Shown: one piece after another, positions 4,453 to 23,789 of the stretch | How positions within the stretch are numbered: position 1 is the first letter of the stretch | How the letters are laid out: the number at the start of each line of letters is the position of its first letter | Sequence record: OR896838.1 | DNA: 44,740 nucleotides | Source: Escherichia phage McMelon | Direction: 5' to 3' (one strand) | Notes under the pieces: model-generated | The model's database searches: none | The model's input: only the letters and a program-made list of their open reading frames with translations | Told to the model about the DNA's origin: nothing | Program-made: the position numbers and the translations under genes

Positions 4453-5217
4453 TTAGCGCGGAATACCGCAGATTTCGTTTAACGTCTTAACATCCAGCGC
4501 CACCGCCGTGGATTTAGGCTTGTCCGGGTATGGAATGAACTGTTCCACTTCAGGCCACGCCTTGATCAGCTTCTTATCGGTATTGTGCATATCCAGCACG
4601 CCGGTAACGGTTAGTTTGAACGCGTCATACTTAGCTCGCAACTCGCGTCGGGCCTTGTCATTACGGTCCAGGCGCTTGCAGAAGTCGTGATTCGCCGGGT
4701 AGTCTATACGACCGCGTGGCATATATATCGGCAGCGCTTTTCCGTCATCGTCCAATTCGCACACTGACGCTAACAAAATTTCCTCACACCCAGGCACAAT
4801 ATCGCCGAGATCGGGAGACAGCTTATTCATGTATTTATATTCCCAGTATCCGCGATGTACTCGGAATCGGTGTCCGTCTCCGCTCAATGACACGGTACGG
4901 ACGTTTCCGCCGGCGTTGATTTCGAAAGTGGCGTCATAAACGCGGCCGATACCATACGGGCGGTCAGCGTTATAACTATACGTCGCCTTGTTGGTGTATA
5001 CGCTTACTCCGTACATCTGCGACGGGTCATCGCCGATTGCTTTAATGCGCGCGAGTAGCTCGGCGAAAGTGCGAATGCCTTCCGGCATACAGTCCAGCGT
5101 AATGGCGTACGCAAGGTCGCGAGAGTCCATCATGATGGATTTGGCTTCGGTCGCGATTTCATGGTCGCGCAGGATGTTAGCCAGAATCTGGTTTTTAATG
5201 TCTTTTGTCAGTCTCAT
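4453..5217 (-). CDS. hypothetical protein (orphan reverse-strand gene in structural module)
   Basis: 254 aa from the internal ATG (MRLTKD...) with RBS GAGGA 8 nt upstream; the longer track ORF upstream is an S/A/R-rich antisense shadow of the scaffold gene; no recognisable domain. Confidence 0.55.
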   Translation of the reverse strand: MRLTKDIKNQILANILRDHEIATEAKSIMMDSRDLAYAITLDCMPEGIRTFAELLARIKAIGDDPSQMYGVSVYTNKATYSYNADRPYGIGRVYDATFEINAGGNVRTVSLSGDGHRFRVHRGYWEYKYMNKLSPDLGDIVPGCEEILLASVCELDDDGKALPIYMPRGRIDYPANHDFCKRLDRNDKARRELRAKYDAFKLTVTGVLDMHNTDKKLIKAWPEVEQFIPYPDKPKSTAVALDVKTLNEICGIPR

Positions 5218-16008: not shown

Positions 16009-16616
16009 CCACCTTTAAACTATACGGCGTCTTAGGACGTCGTTTCGGTAAAGTGCATAAGCTGGACTGCTTCACGCCGGGCGAGGGTATCACCGGCCTG
16101 TGTGTGAAGTTACCAGGCCTACAGGACTTTTTAATGTCGGCCCACCTGGACAACATGATGTTCAAAGTGCGCAAGGGCAATCACACTATGACCGGCTACG
16201 ATGAGTTGGGCGAGTTCCACGGCGACCGCGTAGTGACCATCGCGCCGGTTATGACTGGCGCAAAAAGCGGACTGGGCCAATTGCTGGCGGGGGTAGCAAT
16301 CGTGGTGGCGTCGTTCTATACCGGCGGGCTTGCGACTGCCGCTTTCGGAGCTTCAGCTGCGACCGCTGCCGCTATCGGTACAGCGACGTTTTCGTTTGGG
16401 ATGTCGATGGCGCTGGGTGGCGTTATGCAATTGCTGTCGCCACAACCGAAAGGATTGCAGACCCGGCAGGACGTGGATAACAAGGCGTCGTACGCGTTCG
16501 GCGGACCGGTAAACACTACCGCGCAAGGAACGGCACTTGGGGTATTATGGGGCGAGCGTGAGATCGGCGGCGCTATTATTTCAGCCGGAATCGTAACCGA
16601 GGATTTGAACGAATGA
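15999..16616 (+). CDS. tail assembly protein I-like
   Basis: 205 aa; Gly/Ala-rich hydrophobic C-terminal half; position between K-like and J-like genes. Confidence 0.6.
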   Translation: MAMTTFKLYGVLGRRFGKVHKLDCFTPGEGITGLCVKLPGLQDFLMSAHLDNMMFKVRKGNHTMTGYDELGEFHGDRVVTIAPVMTGAKSGLGQLLAGVAIVVASFYTGGLATAAFGASAATAAAIGTATFSFGMSMALGGVMQLLSPQPKGLQTRQDVDNKASYAFGGPVNTTAQGTALGVLWGEREIGGAIISAGIVTEDLNE

Positions 16617-19600
16617 CGATTATCTACGACGTCACAGGCCATAAAGGCGGCGGCGGCAAACAGCACACCCCGCAGGAAACGCCGGACAGCCTGCATTCGC
16701 TGGCTAAAATCCGCATCTTGCTTGCGCTGGGGGAAGGGGAGTTCGAAAGTATTACCAGCGCCAGCGAATTGCGGCAGCGAGTATATCTGGACGGCACGCC
16801 GATCCAAAACGCCGACCTGTCGGAAAACTTCCCAGGCGCGCGCGTGGAGTTCCGCCCCGGCACACAGCACCAGGACGTGATCCACGGATTTTCAGCGGTG
16901 GAAAGTGAGCAATCCGTCGGCGTAAAACTGGAAAACGGCACGCCGTGGGTGCGCCAGATTAACGACACCAGTCTTGACGCCGTGCGCATTCGTGTTGGTA
17001 TCCCAGCTTTGTACACCAGCGAAGATAATGGCGACCTGGTGGGCGGGCGCATCGACTATAAGATCGTTGTATATACGGATAACGCCGACCCGCGTGAGTT
17101 TACCTTCGCTGCCGTTGGCAAAACAATGTCGCTGTATGAGCGGGACCACCGCATCGAGCTACCGCCGAACGTTAACACCGGCTGGCGCGTGGAAGTTCAC
17201 CGCACAACGGCAGATTCCACATCGGCGAAAGTGGTGAACGATATCCAGGTACAATCAATCACTGAGATTATCGACGCCCGCCTTCGCTACCCGCTAACAG
17301 CGCTGTTGTTCGTTGAGTTCGACGCTAAAGCGTTCCAGAACATCCCGCGCGTATCCATTAAGTGCAAAGGACGAAAAGTTCTAATCCCGAACAACTACGA
17401 CCCGATTAATCATACTTATTCTGGCGACTGGGACGGGACGTTTAAACGCGCATGGACGGATAACCCGGCGTGGCACTGGTATGATATCTGTATTACGGAG
17501 CGCTTCGGCCTCGGTCGCCGGATAAAGCCGCAAATGCTAAACCGTTACGCGCTCTACCAGATTGCGCAGCGCTGCGACCAGATGGTAAGCGACGGAAACG
17601 GCGGACGGGAAATCCGCTTTAAGAATGATATGTACATCCAGTCGCAGACCGACGCATGGACCGTGCTTAAGGATTTAGCAGCCATCTTTGCGGGTATGAC
17701 CTGGTGGGGAAACCAGATGTTGAATATCGTCAGTGACCAGCCGGTCGCAGCGGTATCGCACACTATCACCAACGCCTCGGTAATTGATGGCAGATTCGAC
17801 TACGCGTCAGGGAGCCAGAAAACTCGCTATTCCACGTTCGCGGTAGCATACGGCAACCCGAAAAACCACTACGATGATGCCATCGCAACGGGGCAACGTG
17901 TCGAACTGGTACGCCGCCATAAGATTAACCGTCTCGATATAACGGCGATCGGCTGTACGCGTGAATCAGAAGCGCAACGCCGGGGGCACTGGGCGCTAAT
18001 CTCCAACCAGCTTGACCAGCAAGTTAGCTTTAAAGTCGGCATGGAAGGGCTGTTTTTTATCCCAGGAAGCGTAGTGGCGATCGCGGATACTAACATTTCC
18101 GGCGGCTTCGAGACACGCGGCGGACGCCTGTTGTCAGACCCAGGCACGCGTACTGTGCTGAACACAGACAGCGAAATCACGTTCCGCCCAGGTGATAAAT
18201 TCATGGTACGCACCGATAGCGGTAATGTGGAGACTCGCGAGATCGCCAGCGTCAACGGCAACAAGGTCACGCTAAAAACTGCACTGGACGCCGACCCGAT
18301 TCCCGATCAACCGTTTTGCGTTGACGGCGATGATATCCAGTTGCAAAAGTTCCGCATCACCGACCTGGAATACGACGACGCTACCAGCACTTTTTCAGTG
18401 CGCGGGATTGAGTACAACGATAGCAAATATGATGCCGTTGATAATGGCGCTCGCCTTGACCCAGGCATCTTTACGCAAGTGCCTGACGGCGTAATGAAGG
18501 GGCCGGAGTCAGTGACCATCACCCCGTCGCAGATTTCATCACAAGGCCAGCTAATCACCAACGTGGATATTGTCTTCCCGCCGGTGAAGGATGCCGTTGT
18601 TTATGAAATCCAGTGGCGACGTACCAGCCTGCAGAATATGGCGATCCAGTGGGGTAACGACTGGGTGAACATCCCACGCACGGCATCGAACGGCGCGCAC
18701 ATCCCCAACGTGTTCTCCGGTAACTATCAGGCACGCGTCCGCGCAATCGGTATGGGTGAAATCTCGTCCCCGTGGGTGTCGTCCCCCATCACGCCGATCG
18801 AAGGTCGCCTCGGGGGGCTTAATGCGCCAATCATCACCAACGCTATTTCAGGTTTGCACCAGATCCTATGGAAGTGGAACCACAACAACGCCGCGACGGA
18901 TATATCTTACACAGAGCTTGAAGTGCGCAAGACGGGCGAAACGGAATGGAAATTCCTGTCCAACGTCCCATATCCGGGGGCGGAGTATGCGCAAACGTCG
19001 CTGGAGTTCGGCATTTACCAGCAGTTGCGCGCCCGCGTAGCGGATAAAATCGGAAACCTGTCTGACTGGTCCGCCCCGTTTGAAGGCCAGGTGAGTGACA
19101 AAGTCGACGAATACATGAAGGGGCTTGATAACGAGTTCTTGACTTCCGAAGATGGTAAACACTTCCAGGAAGCAATCGACACCATGCCGCAAGGCATTTA
19201 CGAGGCTATGCTAACCGACGCCCAGCAGCTATTCATCGCCCGCGCCGAATATCAAGGGATCTACGCAGAAATCAAGGTGGCGTATAACGTGGCGGTGGAT
19301 GCTAACGAGGCCGTGGCGCAACTGGAGACGTTGATCGGCACGCGCCTTGACGATGCGGAAGCGTCAATCCACACGTTGCAGACCGCGCAAAGCACACACG
19401 AACAAGCGTTCGCCCAGTACCAGCAGACTGTTGCCGCTAAATTTGGGGAACAGGAAGCTGCCATCCAGCAGGTACAAACGGCAACGGCAGACGTAGCGGG
19501 CGCACTGGCGGAGTACAAGACCCAGGTAGCGGCACAGTTCGACCAACAGTCCGCAGCTATTGAGCAGAAGATGACGTCTTCGTTTAACCATACTGGCGGT

Positions 19601-20032
19601 AGTGCCACATACAGCCTTAAGGCTGGCGTGACGTATAACGGGACTTACTACGATGCCGGTATGCAGCTTTCCGTCGTGGCGGAAGGTGGCGCGGTTAAAT
19701 CCCGCATCGCGTTCAAGGCGGACCAGTTCTACATCATGCACCCATCTAACGGGTCGCTTTCGTCCGCGTTTATTGTAGACGGCGGGGCGGTGTACATTGA
19801 CACGGCACGCATCAAGGACGCGACTATCAACTTCGCGCAGATCACGGACACGCTTCAGTCGAATAACTACGACGGCAGCACGCGCGGATGGCGCTTAGGG
19901 AAAGACGGAACGTTTATCAACCTGGGAACCGGCAACGGCGGCGCGATGAAACAGACGAACACGCAAATCAGCGTCAGGGATGGAAACGGCGTTCTACGCG
20001 TGCAGATTGGTGAAATCACGGGTAGTTGGTAG
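16613..20032 (+). CDS. host specificity protein / central tail fibre (lambda J-like)
   Basis: 1139 aa; N-terminus (GHKGGGGKQHTPQE...) resembles lambda J N-terminus; size and synteny. Confidence 0.8.
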   Translation: MTIIYDVTGHKGGGGKQHTPQETPDSLHSLAKIRILLALGEGEFESITSASELRQRVYLDGTPIQNADLSENFPGARVEFRPGTQHQDVIHGFSAVESEQSVGVKLENGTPWVRQINDTSLDAVRIRVGIPALYTSEDNGDLVGGRIDYKIVVYTDNADPREFTFAAVGKTMSLYERDHRIELPPNVNTGWRVEVHRTTADSTSAKVVNDIQVQSITEIIDARLRYPLTALLFVEFDAKAFQNIPRVSIKCKGRKVLIPNNYDPINHTYSGDWDGTFKRAWTDNPAWHWYDICITERFGLGRRIKPQMLNRYALYQIAQRCDQMVSDGNGGREIRFKNDMYIQSQTDAWTVLKDLAAIFAGMTWWGNQMLNIVSDQPVAAVSHTITNASVIDGRFDYASGSQKTRYSTFAVAYGNPKNHYDDAIATGQRVELVRRHKINRLDITAIGCTRESEAQRRGHWALISNQLDQQVSFKVGMEGLFFIPGSVVAIADTNISGGFETRGGRLLSDPGTRTVLNTDSEITFRPGDKFMVRTDSGNVETREIASVNGNKVTLKTALDADPIPDQPFCVDGDDIQLQKFRITDLEYDDATSTFSVRGIEYNDSKYDAVDNGARLDPGIFTQVPDGVMKGPESVTITPSQISSQGQLITNVDIVFPPVKDAVVYEIQWRRTSLQNMAIQWGNDWVNIPRTASNGAHIPNVFSGNYQARVRAIGMGEISSPWVSSPITPIEGRLGGLNAPIITNAISGLHQILWKWNHNNAATDISYTELEVRKTGETEWKFLSNVPYPGAEYAQTSLEFGIYQQLRARVADKIGNLSDWSAPFEGQVSDKVDEYMKGLDNEFLTSEDGKHFQEAIDTMPQGIYEAMLTDAQQLFIARAEYQGIYAEIKVAYNVAVDANEAVAQLETLIGTRLDDAEASIHTLQTAQSTHEQAFAQYQQTVAAKFGEQEAAIQQVQTATADVAGALAEYKTQVAAQFDQQSAAIEQKMTSSFNHTGGSATYSLKAGVTYNGTYYDAGMQLSVVAEGGAVKSRIAFKADQFYIMHPSNGSLSSAFIVDGGAVYIDTARIKDATINFAQITDTLQSNNYDGSTRGWRLGKDGTFINLGTGNGGAMKQTNTQISVRDGNGVLRVQIGEITGSW

Positions 20033-20069: not shown

Positions 20070-20372
20070 ATGGCTTTTGGAGTAGAAACATGGGACGCGC
20101 AAGGGCGTCCGAACAACTACGGGATCAAGCCGGTGTCGGTTGCCGGAATTATCAAACTGGCTCAAGGTCAAACATGGGGGGCGTGGTCGTTCAATATTCC
20201 GTCAGGTATGAAAGTAGGTTTTGCGGTTACTCTGGACGTAGGAGGCACTACGGTCGGTCGGGCGATCCGCGCCAGCGGGAACACGATAACAGTATCTGCG
20301 GCAAACAGCGCCGGTATTGGAAACTACCCAGCGTCAGAATGTGAGGTAGTAGTTTTTGTGGAGAAAGCGTAA
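20070..20372 (+). CDS. hypothetical tail-associated protein
   Basis: 100 aa, RBS GGAGG, between J-like gene and fibre genes. Confidence 0.5.
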   Translation: MAFGVETWDAQGRPNNYGIKPVSVAGIIKLAQGQTWGAWSFNIPSGMKVGFAVTLDVGGTTVGRAIRASGNTITVSAANSAGIGNYPASECEVVVFVEKA

Positions 20373-20374
20373 AA

Positions 20375-21046
20375 ATGGCAAACTTCGGCGCGTTAATCGA
20401 TAACAACAACGGCAACCCATTCGTCACGCCAAACTCAACGCCATTCGTGCTCTATGCTAAGGTGTCGGCAAATTCAGTTGACGCAGGCGCGGCTTATAAG
20501 ACGGCTAGTGGCGCAGTGGATATCCCCGCGAACTATCCGGCGATGGTGTTTATGCGGTCAAACAACCGTTGCGTCTTGGCGGCGTCACGATCAGGTAATC
20601 GGATTATATTTAGCGGAAGCATTCAGGGTAAGAATAACCCACATTTTACCGTCACGGCGTACGTATTCGCGAGATTTCCGCAACCGCTGCCGAAATGGGG
20701 CTTTGCTATTTGGGACGCTAGCGGTACTTGCATACTAACCAACGAAAGCAAGGTTCTCACCGATCTAGTCACTGTCGGCAGCTTCGGTAGTAACGGGGGG
20801 ATCAACATAGACCAGACGCTGCCGGGTAAGTACGCGGTATCGCCTATGTTAATGGGCGCTACTCTGATCCAGATCTTTGTACAAGGGCAGCCGCAGATTA
20901 TCCAGATCTCGGCAGGGGCTGGGGCTTACGACAACGGAAGCGGCACTCGCATTAACGCCGTCGCTACGCGGGCGGGGTCTGGTAGCATCGCCGGGTATCA
21001 AAACACCGGCGTTGCGCTGACAGCAATTAACGTTGATGGGATATGA
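20375..21046 (+). CDS. hypothetical tail-associated protein
   Basis: 223 aa, Gly/Ser/Asn-rich; synteny only. Confidence 0.5.
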   Translation: MANFGALIDNNNGNPFVTPNSTPFVLYAKVSANSVDAGAAYKTASGAVDIPANYPAMVFMRSNNRCVLAASRSGNRIIFSGSIQGKNNPHFTVTAYVFARFPQPLPKWGFAIWDASGTCILTNESKVLTDLVTVGSFGSNGGINIDQTLPGKYAVSPMLMGATLIQIFVQGQPQIIQISAGAGAYDNGSGTRINAVATRAGSGSIAGYQNTGVALTAINVDGI

Positions 21047-21072
21047 ATAAGCCCCTTTCGGGGCTTATTTGC
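21047..21072. terminator. putative bidirectional terminator
   Basis: AAGCCCC-tttc-GGGGCTT hairpin between convergent genes; T-rich flank. Confidence 0.55.
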
Positions 21073-21283
21073 AGGTTGTGCTTTTGAAGTGGTCAACTGA
21101 CACATACTGGAAGTTAAACGGGTAGCCAGCCCTAAGCATTTTGTGACCGCTAAAATCTGCTACCCCAAACACGGGGACTGAGTAGTCCAAGCCGCTATTC
21201 TGGTATGTCGCGTCGCAGACTTTAGCTGGCATGTTGGCACAACCGGACAAAAGAACCGCACAAATCATAATTAAAGTTTTCAT
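21065..21283 (-). CDS. small outer-membrane lipoprotein (candidate Cor/Llp-like superinfection exclusion protein)
   Basis: 72 aa from ATG with AGGAGA RBS; signal peptide MKTLIMICAVLLSGC with lipobox; antisense to and embedded among tail fibre genes. Confidence 0.6.
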   Translation of the reverse strand: MKTLIMICAVLLSGCANMPAKVCDATYQNSGLDYSVPVFGVADFSGHKMLRAGYPFNFQYVSVDHFKSTTCK

Positions 21284-21363
21284 GGTATCATCTCCTATAT
21301 TTGGTTGAGTTTTAGTATTACACCTCTCGACCAGGATTGCAACCAATTTATGAGGATTCAGCT

Positions 21364-23187
21364 ATGGCAGCGGGTACACTATCCGTAACGAATAACAGCA
21401 AGGCGGTTGTTGGGGTCGGCACAACGTTTACCTCGTTTAACGCTGGCGACTTCTTAACGCTGGTGGTAGGACAAATCCCCTACACCGTAGCAATCGCGTC
21501 CATTGAAAGCGACACCGCTCTTACGCTGGTGCTGCCGTTCGACGGCCCATCGGCAACCGGCCTTGCGTGGGATGGCGTTACGCGCGATACCATGTCGCTG
21601 GCAACGATGGGCGTAACCGTACAGGCACAGAAAGCATTGCGCTTGATGATTGCAGATGAAAACAACTGGCGTGCAATCTTCGGCGACGCTGAAGAAGTCA
21701 CAGTAACGTTACCTAACGGGCAGGTAATGCAGGGTATGTCATGGGGCTATCTGTCGCAGTTGATGAAACAGATCGACCTAGTGGAGATGCGCAACCTGCA
21801 ACAACAAGCTGCCGCATCGGAAGCAGCCGCGCAGGGCTTCCGCGATCAGGCCGAAGGCTTCAAGACCGAGACGGCGGGCATTCGCGACGCCACCAATCAG
21901 ATTAAGGCGGATACGCAGGCGATCCACGACGCCACTAATACCATCAAGACGCAGACTGACCAGATTAAGACTGATACTCAGGCCATCAAGGACCAGACGA
22001 ACCAGATCAAGACTGACACCGGCGTTATTCGTGACGAAGCCAATATGGCGAAGGCGGACGCGCAAGCCGCCAGCACTGCCGCGGAGGGATTTCGCGACCA
22101 GGCCGAGGAATGGGCGCAAAGCGTTAACGCGGATAACCTGCTAACCAAATCCGGCAACCTCGCGGGGCTTGCGGACAAAGGTGCGTCGTGGGCTAACCTC
22201 ATGCCGTCCGGCCCGCTTCGAGTAGGCGCTGATCCCGTCGACAATCTGGACGCTGCGACTAGAGGATGGGTGTGTCGCGGTCTTGATGACGTGGGGGTGT
22301 GGGCCTTACGCAATAACTATGCTTCGGAACCCGCTGGCGGCGCAGAAGTATACGGCGGTCGCTTCGACTCATCTGCGAACGTCGCAGGGGTCGAAAAATA
22401 CAGAATGTCGCTGCAACTTCAGGGATTTAATAACGTAGACGCCTGGACACGTTTGGTTACCGCGAACGCCCCCGGCATGGTGAACGCGGCGTCGTGGGAC
22501 TTTAAGTACGATGGTAAGTTGCTTTTCAACAAAGGATTGGTTCCATCATCCACCTCGGCGTCGCCCGGTAACACCTATGTCACCCTTGCGAATACATGGA
22601 GTGACAGCCAATACTCGAACCACGTAGGTTTTGTCGGAGGGGGAACTGGGGTGTCTAATGGTGGGTGGCGTAACTTTATTTCGTTCGGGGCGCTGATCCA
22701 CCCACCAACCGGTAACTCACACCCCCACGCTATGATTGCGCAGGTCTTTGACTATGATTTGGCGTCGGGGGTACAGCCCAACGGCGATAGCATTCGAAAC
22801 ACAACATTCAACCCCGAAGCATATGATATTACCTTCGGCAACAACTCAGGGACTGTTAACTATATTTTCGCAAAGTCACCAGTATCCGATAGGGCGCTGA
22901 AGCATGATATCGCCAGGATCGATACTCAAGTTGCGTACGATAACGTTATGGCGATGGAATACTCTTCCTTTGTTTATAACTACGACAAAAAGGAGACGGT
23001 CAGACGTGGTTTTATCGCGCAGCAGTTGGAAGAGATCGACCCGCAGTATGTTCGTAAGTACGCCGACGCAACGGGTAAAGAGTTTCTGGCATTAGATGAA
23101 AACGTCCTGTTACTTGACCTTGTCGCGACTGTTCAGCATTTGGCGGCGAAGGTTGAGGCGTTAGAAAGTAAGTTAGCGGAGAAATGA
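21364..23187 (+). CDS. side tail fibre protein with C-terminal intramolecular chaperone (peptidase S74-like) domain
   Basis: RBS GAGGA; internal 11-aa repeats; C-terminal region (ALKHDIARID...AQQLEEIDPQYV...) resembles auto-cleaving chaperone domains of T5 L-shaped fibre and K1F endosialidase. Confidence 0.75.
   Translation: MAAGTLSVTNNSKAVVGVGTTFTSFNAGDFLTLVVGQIPYTVAIASIESDTALTLVLPFDGPSATGLAWDGVTRDTMSLATMGVTVQAQKALRLMIADENNWRAIFGDAEEVTVTLPNGQVMQGMSWGYLSQLMKQIDLVEMRNLQQQAAASEAAAQGFRDQAEGFKTETAGIRDATNQIKADTQAIHDATNTIKTQTDQIKTDTQAIKDQTNQIKTDTGVIRDEANMAKADAQAASTAAEGFRDQAEEWAQSVNADNLLTKSGNLAGLADKGASWANLMPSGPLRVGADPVDNLDAATRGWVCRGLDDVGVWALRNNYASEPAGGAEVYGGRFDSSANVAGVEKYRMSLQLQGFNNVDAWTRLVTANAPGMVNAASWDFKYDGKLLFNKGLVPSSTSASPGNTYVTLANTWSDSQYSNHVGFVGGGTGVSNGGWRNFISFGALIHPPTGNSHPHAMIAQVFDYDLASGVQPNGDSIRNTTFNPEAYDITFGNNSGTVNYIFAKSPVSDRALKHDIARIDTQVAYDNVMAMEYSSFVYNYDKKETVRRGFIAQQLEEIDPQYVRKYADATGKEFLALDENVLLLDLVATVQHLAAKVEALESKLAEK
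21877..22041 (+). repeat. tandem 33-bp (11-codon) repeats inside tail fibre gene
   Basis: Five consecutive units of pattern xIKxDTxxIxDxT, flanked by duplicated GFRDQAE-coding segments. Confidence 0.55.
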
Positions 23188-23191
23188 GAAT

Positions 23192-23216
23192 AAGGGGCCA
23201 TACGGCCCCTTTTTTA
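23192..23216. terminator. rho-independent terminator (bidirectional)
   Basis: AGGGGCC-atac-GGCCCCT hairpin with T-runs on both sides between convergent genes. Confidence 0.7.
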
Positions 23217-23789
23217 GTTTGAGTTTTCCCAGTCCATTTTGCGCCGCACCAGCGGGCTTTCGTAATACTCCTTTCCTTCCACTTCCACCAAAGGCCAGTC
23301 GTTCACAATCACGTACGGCTCCGCGATATCCTCAATCACGCCGTGCGCGCTTTGTGGCCCTAACGACACACCCACCAGGATAACACCGGCAACGCGACGT
23401 GACAGATACTCGCGAGCGCAACGCGCCTCCACCAGTCCGCGACGGATGCCGCTGGTGGCTTTAACCTCGTAAGTCCAAACGGCATCGATCACATGCTCGC
23501 GGAAGTCGGGGCCGGATTTAACCTTGCGCTTACCGACCATAATAATATCGCCGCGGTCAATGGTGTTGGCGCTAAACAGGCCGGTACGCATTAGCAAACC
23601 TTGCGGGATACAGCTACGCCCGCCCGCCTGCCCTTCGAGGTACATGCCTGCAAACATTTCGCCCAGCACACCGACGAGTCTGCTTTGCTTGCACGCGTCG
23701 GACTTATAACGCCACTGGTCAAACTCTATGCTTGCGATCATTGCCGCCAGGTGGAATTGTTTACCTGTTATTTCATATTCGCCGTACAT
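23214..23789 (-). CDS. hypothetical protein (possible PD-(D/E)XK-like fold)
   Basis: 191 aa, last gene of leftward operon; GDIIMVGK ... YEVK spacing resembles a restriction-endonuclease-like motif (weak). Confidence 0.5.
   Translation of the reverse strand: MYGEYEITGKQFHLAAMIASIEFDQWRYKSDACKQSRLVGVLGEMFAGMYLEGQAGGRSCIPQGLLMRTGLFSANTIDRGDIIMVGKRKVKSGPDFREHVIDAVWTYEVKATSGIRRGLVEARCAREYLSRRVAGVILVGVSLGPQSAHGVIEDIAEPYVIVNDWPLVEVEGKEYYESPLVRRKMDWENSN

Follow-up and report, generated by a model that had tools for sequence, protein, structure and literature searches.

Gene neighbourhood of cor in the McMelon genome

The window analysed here is the 44,740-nucleotide DNA of Escherichia phage McMelon (sequence record OR896838.1), a Dhillonvirus genome whose DNA is 90–94% identical over 25 kb to that of CEC_Kaz_2018, TH11/TH13, B2 and others. 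Within it, a small minus-strand gene, cor (21065..21283), is set between plus-strand genes of the tail tip and the lateral tail fibre. On one side of cor lie a gene for a J-like tail tip protein (16613..20032, +; similarity to NCBIfam lambda_TipJ at E 8e-108, below the equivalog cut-off), a gene for a 100-aa gp22-like protein of the N15 gp22 / T1 ST32 family (20070..20372, +; phrog_557, E 3e-31) and a gene for a 223-aa gp23-like protein of the N15 gp23 / T1 ST31 family (20375..21046, +; phrog_425, E 1.2e-66). The gp22-like protein is 47–73% identical to its counterparts in T1, phi80 and N15, and the gp23-like protein 47–54%; phrog_425 carries the PHROG label ‘membrane associated protein’. The role of these two proteins is disputed, with the BASEL view taking them as FhuA-binding receptor-binding proteins and the KanT1 paper as exclusion accessories. 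The gp23-like protein of McMelon may serve in receptor binding or as an accessory of exclusion.

The initial annotation described the small gene as transcribed against the late genes, and this holds in detail: cor and the tail-tip genes face each other as convergent units, and the lateral tail fibre gene points away from cor. McMelon, T1, phi80 and N15 all have the gene order J / gp22 / gp23 / cor. In T1, cor is also inverted, with a terminator at the gp23/cor junction, so that a reverse orientation among tail genes is the normal T1-type layout.

On the other side of cor, the lateral tail fibre gene occupies a listed ORF at 21337-23187 (+), for which the probable start is the ATG at 21364, with GAGGA 7 nt upstream, and not the TTG at 21337. 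Its product has a C-terminal Peptidase_S74 intramolecular chaperone domain (Pfam; aa 517-572 of the listed ORF). The fibre gene is mosaic among relatives, in that megablast matches cover either its first part only or the whole gene. It is followed by a conserved 191-aa ORF (23214-23789, −), the first of a leftward block, which matches phrog_10558 at E 1.5e-118 and for which Pfam gave no match.

The map of phage SSL-2009a is as in McMelon, and its orf27 is annotated as Cor superinfection exclusion protein. The SSL-2009a annotation includes a DNA polymerase, helicase and primase of its own, with no integrase or repressor, from which we take SSL-2009a to be a virulent phage. The virulent lifestyle that we assign to McMelon is taken from the gene content of this close relative.

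The cor reading frame and its lipoprotein signal

The cor gene (21065..21283, −) runs from ATG to TAA, stop codon included, and encodes a 72-aa prolipoprotein. Its translation (21283..21065, −) is MKTLIMICAVLLSGCANMPAKVCDATYQNSGLDYSVPVFGVADFSGHKMLRAGYPFNFQYVSVDHFKSTTCK. The lipoprotein ORF of the initial annotation was thereby recovered at 21065-21283, with its length of 72 aa and a lipobox LSGC containing Cys15. The ribosome-binding site that had been ascribed to the gene is also there, as a Shine-Dalgarno AGGAG read from the sequence at 21292..21296 (−), with an 8-nt spacer to the ATG; AGGAG is kept in AV129 and PTXU06, and the corresponding letters in Bas16 are AGGGG. A longer reading of 93 aa from an upstream TTG at 21346, which appears in the mechanical ORF list, was rejected because the homologues all begin at the ATG, that is, at the methionine of MKTL/MKKL.

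The signal peptide comprises residues 1-14 (MKTLIMICAVLLSG; 21242..21283, −) and is followed by the codon of Cys15 (21239-21241, −), the residue that is predicted to be lipid-modified. Read directly and compared with the family, the N-terminus of Cor conforms to the PROSITE-type lipoprotein rule, with Lys2, an uncharged 10-residue hydrophobic core (residues 3-12) and the lipobox L-S-G-C. Under the Lol sorting rule, lipoproteins with a +2 residue other than Asp go to the outer membrane. As the +2 residue of Cor is Ala and not Asp, outer-membrane sorting by Lol is expected, and mature Cor is a predicted outer-membrane lipoprotein. The mature chain of 58 aa (21068..21241, −) would begin with the acylated Cys and carries the conserved Cys23 and Cys71 as well as an RAGYPF motif.

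Membership of the Cor family and conservation

Two family models recognise the protein over essentially its whole length. The PHROGs family phrog_1119, “Cor superinfection exclusion protein”, gave a full-length match (residues 1-72, E 7.6e-27), and the NCBIfam equivalog model NF047972, “phage exclusion lipoprotein Cor”, matched residues 2-71 with 57.6 bits (E 9e-16), against a curated cut-off of 31 bits. Pfam gave no match for Cor, for the gp22-like protein or for the gp23-like protein, and the Cor family is represented in PHROGs and NCBIfam only. [quoted passage not shown] The gene itself is already known, since close relatives have carried a Cor annotation from SSL-2009a onwards, and many other relatives also label it as a superinfection exclusion protein.

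In phage genomes searched with tblastn, 244 records have a Cor match, each covering at least 80% of the protein. Identity is 83–99% in 75 Dhillonvirus-type records, 49% with the Cor of phage T1 (ST30, YP_003915) and 49–50% over the full length when other Drexlerviridae are included with T1, 42% with N15 gene 24 (Cor) and 40% with phi80 Cor, the Cor proteins of phi80, HK022-like and mEp phages together ranging from 40 to 42%. The protein of Bas16 (GeorgBuechner) is 98.6% identical to that of McMelon, the two differing at 1 of 72 residues. Some records with names of other hosts, namely MG065648 / MG065637 / MG065679 (‘Campylobacter phage’ A144, A15b, A13a) and OQ221563 (‘Acinetobacter phage NJ01’), contain Dhillonvirus or T1-like cor cassettes that are near-identical to coliphage ones, which suggests mislabelled hosts or contaminating coliphages.

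A single-sequence database search with Cor gave just 6 close relatives, and a profile built with the T1, phi80 and N15 Cor proteins reached 209 homologues, many of which bear the NCBI name “phage exclusion lipoprotein Cor”. The family alignment was made from 94 of these 209 homologues. Five positions (C15, C23, G53, P55 and C71) are invariant in the 94 sequences, and A52, Y54 and F56 are conserved in at least 90%. All 94 have a lipobox, 89 have A or S at +2 and none has D there, and exactly three cysteines are present in the mature chain of 93. The pN/pS of cor is 0.03-0.11 (compared with the cor genes of GeorgBuechner and SSL-2009a), so the gene is under strong purifying selection.

Expression signals around cor

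The intergenic region between cor and the fibre gene is divergent and 80 bp long. A candidate sigma-70 promoter of cor was read there by eye at 21314..21342 (−), consisting of TTGCAA (21342-21337), a 17-nt spacer and TGt-AATACT (21322-21314), with 8 of 12 consensus positions and an extended -10 TG. The consensus scan called neither a promoter nor a terminator for cor; with a promoter threshold of 9/12, the candidate fell below what the scan reports. The candidate is kept in four Dhillonviruses (McMelon, Bas16, AV129 and PTXU06), with TTGCAT as the -35 element in the other three, and at the aligned place upstream of T1 cor we find TTGCAA-17-TACAAT. The predicted transcription start of cor is near 21307. 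A minus-strand ATGATA-16-TATGAT (21291-21264), which the scan did list, was rejected as a cor promoter, as it overlaps the start codon.

A terminator-like bidirectional hairpin lies between the convergent gp23-like gene and cor (21046..21069), with the structure AATAAGCCCC-TTTC-GGGGCTTATT and a perfect stem of 10 bp. The stop codons of both genes are inside it. Its predicted folding energy is -18 kcal/mol (z -5.7), and none of 200 shuffled sequences was as stable. There is no T-run on either side, and without a run of five Ts the hairpin was missed by the terminator scan. The T1 record annotates a rho-independent terminator at the same gp23/cor junction.

On the plus strand, a sigma-70-like site CGGACA-16-CATAAT (21244-21271, 9/12) is found inside the signal-peptide coding sequence of cor, facing the fibre gene. 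It could drive the fibre gene, perhaps from a rightward start near 21278 and with a transcript that runs antisense to the 5′ end of cor, or could instead have arisen incidentally from the AT-rich codons of the signal peptide.

Predicted structure and relation to T5 Llp

An AlphaFold2 model of Cor, built on the 94-sequence alignment, has a mean pLDDT of 82.7; the mature part, at about 92, contains four beta strands. Its best whole-chain match in the PDB, at rank 2, is T5 Llp in complex with FhuA (8A60 chain B, 8a60_B), with a TM-score of 0.60 normalised to Llp and an rmsd of 3.1 Å over 59 columns at 22% identity. The Foldseek E-value of this match is just 0.054, and Tudor-like barrels score alike. 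When the model was searched against BFVD, the top match was a Dhillonvirus Cor, and the next neighbours were small lipoproteins or “receptor-blocking proteins” of the T5-like phages DT571/2, slur09, phiR2-01, PSTCR5 and Stubb (E 1.6e-3 to 2.5e-2). By sequence, a Cor-family profile reached 8a60_B in the PDB at E 0.0043 over residues 1-45 only, the signal peptide included, and a single-sequence Cor search of the PDB gave no match at E up to 10.

The cysteines of mature Cor at positions 9 and 57 (Cys23 and Cys71) parallel in their spacing the Cys11-Cys58 pair of Llp, which forms a disulphide that constrains the termini (PMC9586334). Llp contacts FhuA at its periplasmic face and plug and thereby causes loops EL7 and EL8 to close over the pb5 site, a mode termed “reverse allostery”; the authors of that study expect Cor proteins to act like Llp (PMC9586334). 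Cor functionally inactivates FhuA (PMC9586334; bioRxiv 10.64898/2026.03.26.714494), and in an AlphaFold3 model a T1-type Cor docks to FhuA from the periplasmic side, with an ipTM of 0.84 (PMC13164509). The predicted architectures of Cor and Llp have been described as alike, with the molecular mechanism of Cor itself stated as not elucidated (bioRxiv 10.64898/2026.03.26.714494).

McMelon Cor would resemble T5 Llp as a small outer-membrane lipoprotein, and like Llp it is encoded beside receptor-recognition genes and transcribed against them, with a cysteine pair near both ends of the mature chain and the same expected target. It differs in that identity between the two is only about 22%, with a marginal sequence link, in that its neighbours are of the N15 gp22/gp23 type (phrog_557, phrog_425) and not a receptor-binding protein gene of the pb5 (oad) type, and in that direct FhuA binding has been shown for Llp only. 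The proposal in the initial annotation of a Cor/Llp-like receptor-blocking lipoprotein is supported for Cor, through the sequence, the family models, the conserved cysteines, the neighbourhood and the predicted fold, and has to be narrowed for Llp, to which the kinship is remote and at the level of the fold only. Judged from these comparisons, Cor appears to be kin to Llp in function while standing outside the Llp sequence family.

Comparison with other exclusion lipoproteins

Of the characterised Cor systems, that of T1 shares with McMelon the lipobox, the two extra cysteines and the RAGYPF motif. The two phages, both regarded as virulent, also have in common the layout of J, gp22, gp23, terminator and inverted cor, and a promoter-like site of the form TTGCAA-17-TAnAnT. 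They differ in what comes after cor on the map: T1 cor is directly followed by co-oriented recombination genes, whereas in McMelon cor is separated from the leftward early genes by the fibre gene and thus stands alone as a one-gene unit. The temperate FhuA-dependent phages phi80, N15, HK022 and mEp167 have Cor proteins with 40–42% identity and the same gp22/gp23 pair downstream of J, but their cor genes point the same way as the tail genes and are active in the prophage (lysogenic conversion), unlike the inverted cor of McMelon.

A third type of lipoprotein, Rtp45 (PDB 9RPS chain D), which targets LptDE, occupies the same slot in sister Dhillonviruses such as AV129 and Oekolampad, behind the same promoter and with an identical signal peptide. 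Its mature domain is unrelated to that of Cor, its receptor is LptD, and the lipoprotein gene is followed in the same transcript by the receptor-binding protein gene. McMelon Cor gave no match to 9rps_D in a single-sequence PDB search, and an Rtp45-like identity was rejected on this ground.

Receptor prediction

Among the Dhillonviruses of the BASEL collection, Bas15 (PaulFeyerabend), Bas16 (GeorgBuechner) and Bas17 use FhuA, and Bas14 uses LptD (PMC8594841, S5 table); for Bas15 and Bas16 the FhuA dependence is experimental. Cor and the two genes upstream of it are present in all ten FhuA-dependent BASEL Drexlerviridae/Dhillonvirus phages (PMC13164509), and the Cor cassette of FhuA-dependent Dhillonviruses has thus already been described (PMC8594841; PMC13164509, a 2026 paper). 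Sister Dhillonviruses that use a different receptor have, in the position of cor, the lipoprotein that goes with their own receptor, as in the case of an Rtp45-like lipoprotein beside an Oekolampad-type LptD-binding receptor-binding protein.

The J-like protein of McMelon is 96% identical to that of Bas16. Its gp22-like protein is 70% identical to the Bas16 counterpart, and its gp23-like protein is 53% identical to that of Bas16 and 94.6% identical to that of Bas15. This match to Bas15, together with the divergence from Bas16, means that both gp23-like alleles occur in FhuA-dependent phages. Between McMelon and Bas16, Cor does not co-vary with the gp23-like alleles. With Cor and J closest to FhuA-dependent Bas16 and the gp23-like protein closest to FhuA-dependent Bas15, it is a well-supported inference from sequence that FhuA is the terminal receptor of McMelon.

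The low identities of the gp22-like and gp23-like proteins to those of Bas16 count against this prediction, even though the gp23-like protein matches that of FhuA-dependent Bas15. The gp22-like and gp23-like alleles differ strongly (70% and 53% identity) between FhuA-dependent Dhillonviruses whose J proteins are 96% and Cor proteins 98.6% identical. McMelon itself shows a combination of a Bas15-type gp23-like allele with Bas16-type Cor and J.

A promoter and signal-peptide segment shared within the genus

Megablast matches of several Dhillonviruses to McMelon begin at 21237-21240, which is the Cys15 codon (21239-21241). In AV129 (4940-5165) and PTXU06 (4935-5160), compared with McMelon 21237-21345 (−), the same promoter region is present and similarity ends at the lipobox Cys codon. 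Both phages have the identical signal peptide MKTLIMICAVLLSGC, encoded by DNA nearly identical to that of McMelon, followed by mature lipoproteins unrelated to Cor. The AV129 lipoprotein is Rtp45-like (9rps_D, E 2.2e-8), and the neighbouring gene of AV129 encodes an Oekolampad-type LptD-binding receptor-binding protein (9rpt_C, E 9e-189). PTXU06 has been reported as BtuB-dependent. A 182-bp segment that reaches from the signal peptide across the intergenic region into the start of the fibre gene is present in 144 phage records, Oekolampad, SO-1 and WFI among them, and so in essentially all Dhillonviruses. Just 75 records, about half of the 144, carry a mature Cor domain with an identity of at least 80%.

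From the shared promoter and signal peptide, and from the breaks at the Cys codon, receptor modules appear to be swapped behind a constant adaptor. The promoter and signal-peptide segment (about 21239-21345) would on this tentative reading, which we regard as possible rather than probable, be a genus-wide adaptor, with the lipobox Cys codon as the joint at which Dhillonviruses exchange receptor modules. Each exchanged module would combine the mature part of an exclusion lipoprotein with the receptor-binding genes that match it. Part of the constancy of the segment may come from a fibre promoter on the opposite strand (CGGACA-16-CATAAT, 21244-21271), a signal that at this position is not separable from coding constraint.

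Proposed function of Cor and alternative explanations

The gene is very probably the cor of a virulent Dhillonvirus, whose product inactivates FhuA in the manner of Llp. In the scheme that we propose, cor would be the only gene of a leftward transcription unit, which would start at its own promoter, in the 80 bp that separate cor from the fibre gene, and end at the hairpin that it has in common with the tail-tip operon; the timing of expression, like the promoter itself, is putative. After export and acylation the protein would sit anchored in the outer membrane, where its 58-residue mature form would adopt a small beta fold that a Cys23-Cys71 disulphide probably holds together. There it would inactivate FhuA, the predicted terminal receptor of McMelon. 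FhuA is the TonB-dependent transporter of ferrichrome. By analogy with T5 Llp, the most likely mode of action is that Cor docks on FhuA at its periplasmic face and plug and so folds the extracellular loops over the phage-binding site, a putative case of periplasmic ‘reverse allostery’. The infected cell, and later its debris, would stop adsorbing McMelon as well as other FhuA-dependent phages (T1, T5, phi80), and progeny would in this way be protected by Cor from the debris.

Other explanations differ from this scheme in the step at which they depart from it. Cor could act via, or need, other outer-membrane proteins (OmpA, OmpC, OmpF or others) or a post-adsorption step instead of jamming FhuA directly as Llp does, in which case the exclusion of FhuA-dependent phages would be unchanged as an outcome and only the mechanism would be different. 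The title of Arguijo-Hernandez et al. points in this direction, and the 2026 preprint that describes the Cor mechanism as not elucidated (bioRxiv 10.64898/2026.03.26.714494) and the remote similarity between Cor and Llp leave room for it. We nevertheless think such a route unlikely, given that Llp is the best whole-chain structural match, that the cysteine pair is conserved, and that Cor strictly co-occurs with FhuA dependence in the BASEL phages (PMC13164509). The departure may also lie in the target, if a lipoprotein with the Cor fold blocks a receptor other than FhuA, for instance another TonB-dependent transporter. Cor-like proteins are found in BtuB-dependent phages too (PMC13164509), the lipoprotein of the BtuB-dependent PTXU06 has the same signal peptide, and the identities of the gp22-like and gp23-like proteins to Bas16 are only 70% and 53%; set against the single residue out of 72 at which Cor differs from that of FhuA-dependent Bas16, the gp23-like allele of FhuA-dependent Bas15 and a J protein 96% identical to that of Bas16, these points leave a different target highly improbable.

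The small size of the gene, the lack of a Pfam match and a moron-like appearance with its own promoter and terminator would also suit a small lipoprotein unrelated to Cor (an o-spanin, for instance, or a serum-resistance moron like Bor/Iss) or a spurious ORF. The full-length matches to Cor models above curated thresholds argue against any unrelated lipoprotein, and the strong purifying selection on cor against a spurious ORF. No Bor or spanin family was matched in Pfam, PHROGs or NCBIfam, and the spanin genes of the close relative SSL-2009a are located elsewhere. With the Cor-model matches, the 244 full-length records and the pN/pS values taken together, the spanin, Bor-like and spurious-ORF readings are effectively refuted, and we give them a negligible chance. 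An FhuA-inactivating Cor remains the preferred reading of the gene.

Significance

The cor gene of McMelon adds no new biology; its use lies in annotation and prediction. With the gp22/gp23 pair it forms a cassette that marks McMelon as a predicted FhuA-dependent Dhillonvirus, and it contributes a further divergent Cor sequence to work on the Cor:FhuA structure, which has yet to be solved. Cross-exclusion with T1, T5, phi80 and other FhuA phages is predicted, which would be relevant to the design of phage cocktails. If the promoter and signal-peptide segment does serve Dhillonviruses as an adaptor, a single crossover behind it would both retarget the phage to a new receptor and re-match its self-exclusion to that receptor.
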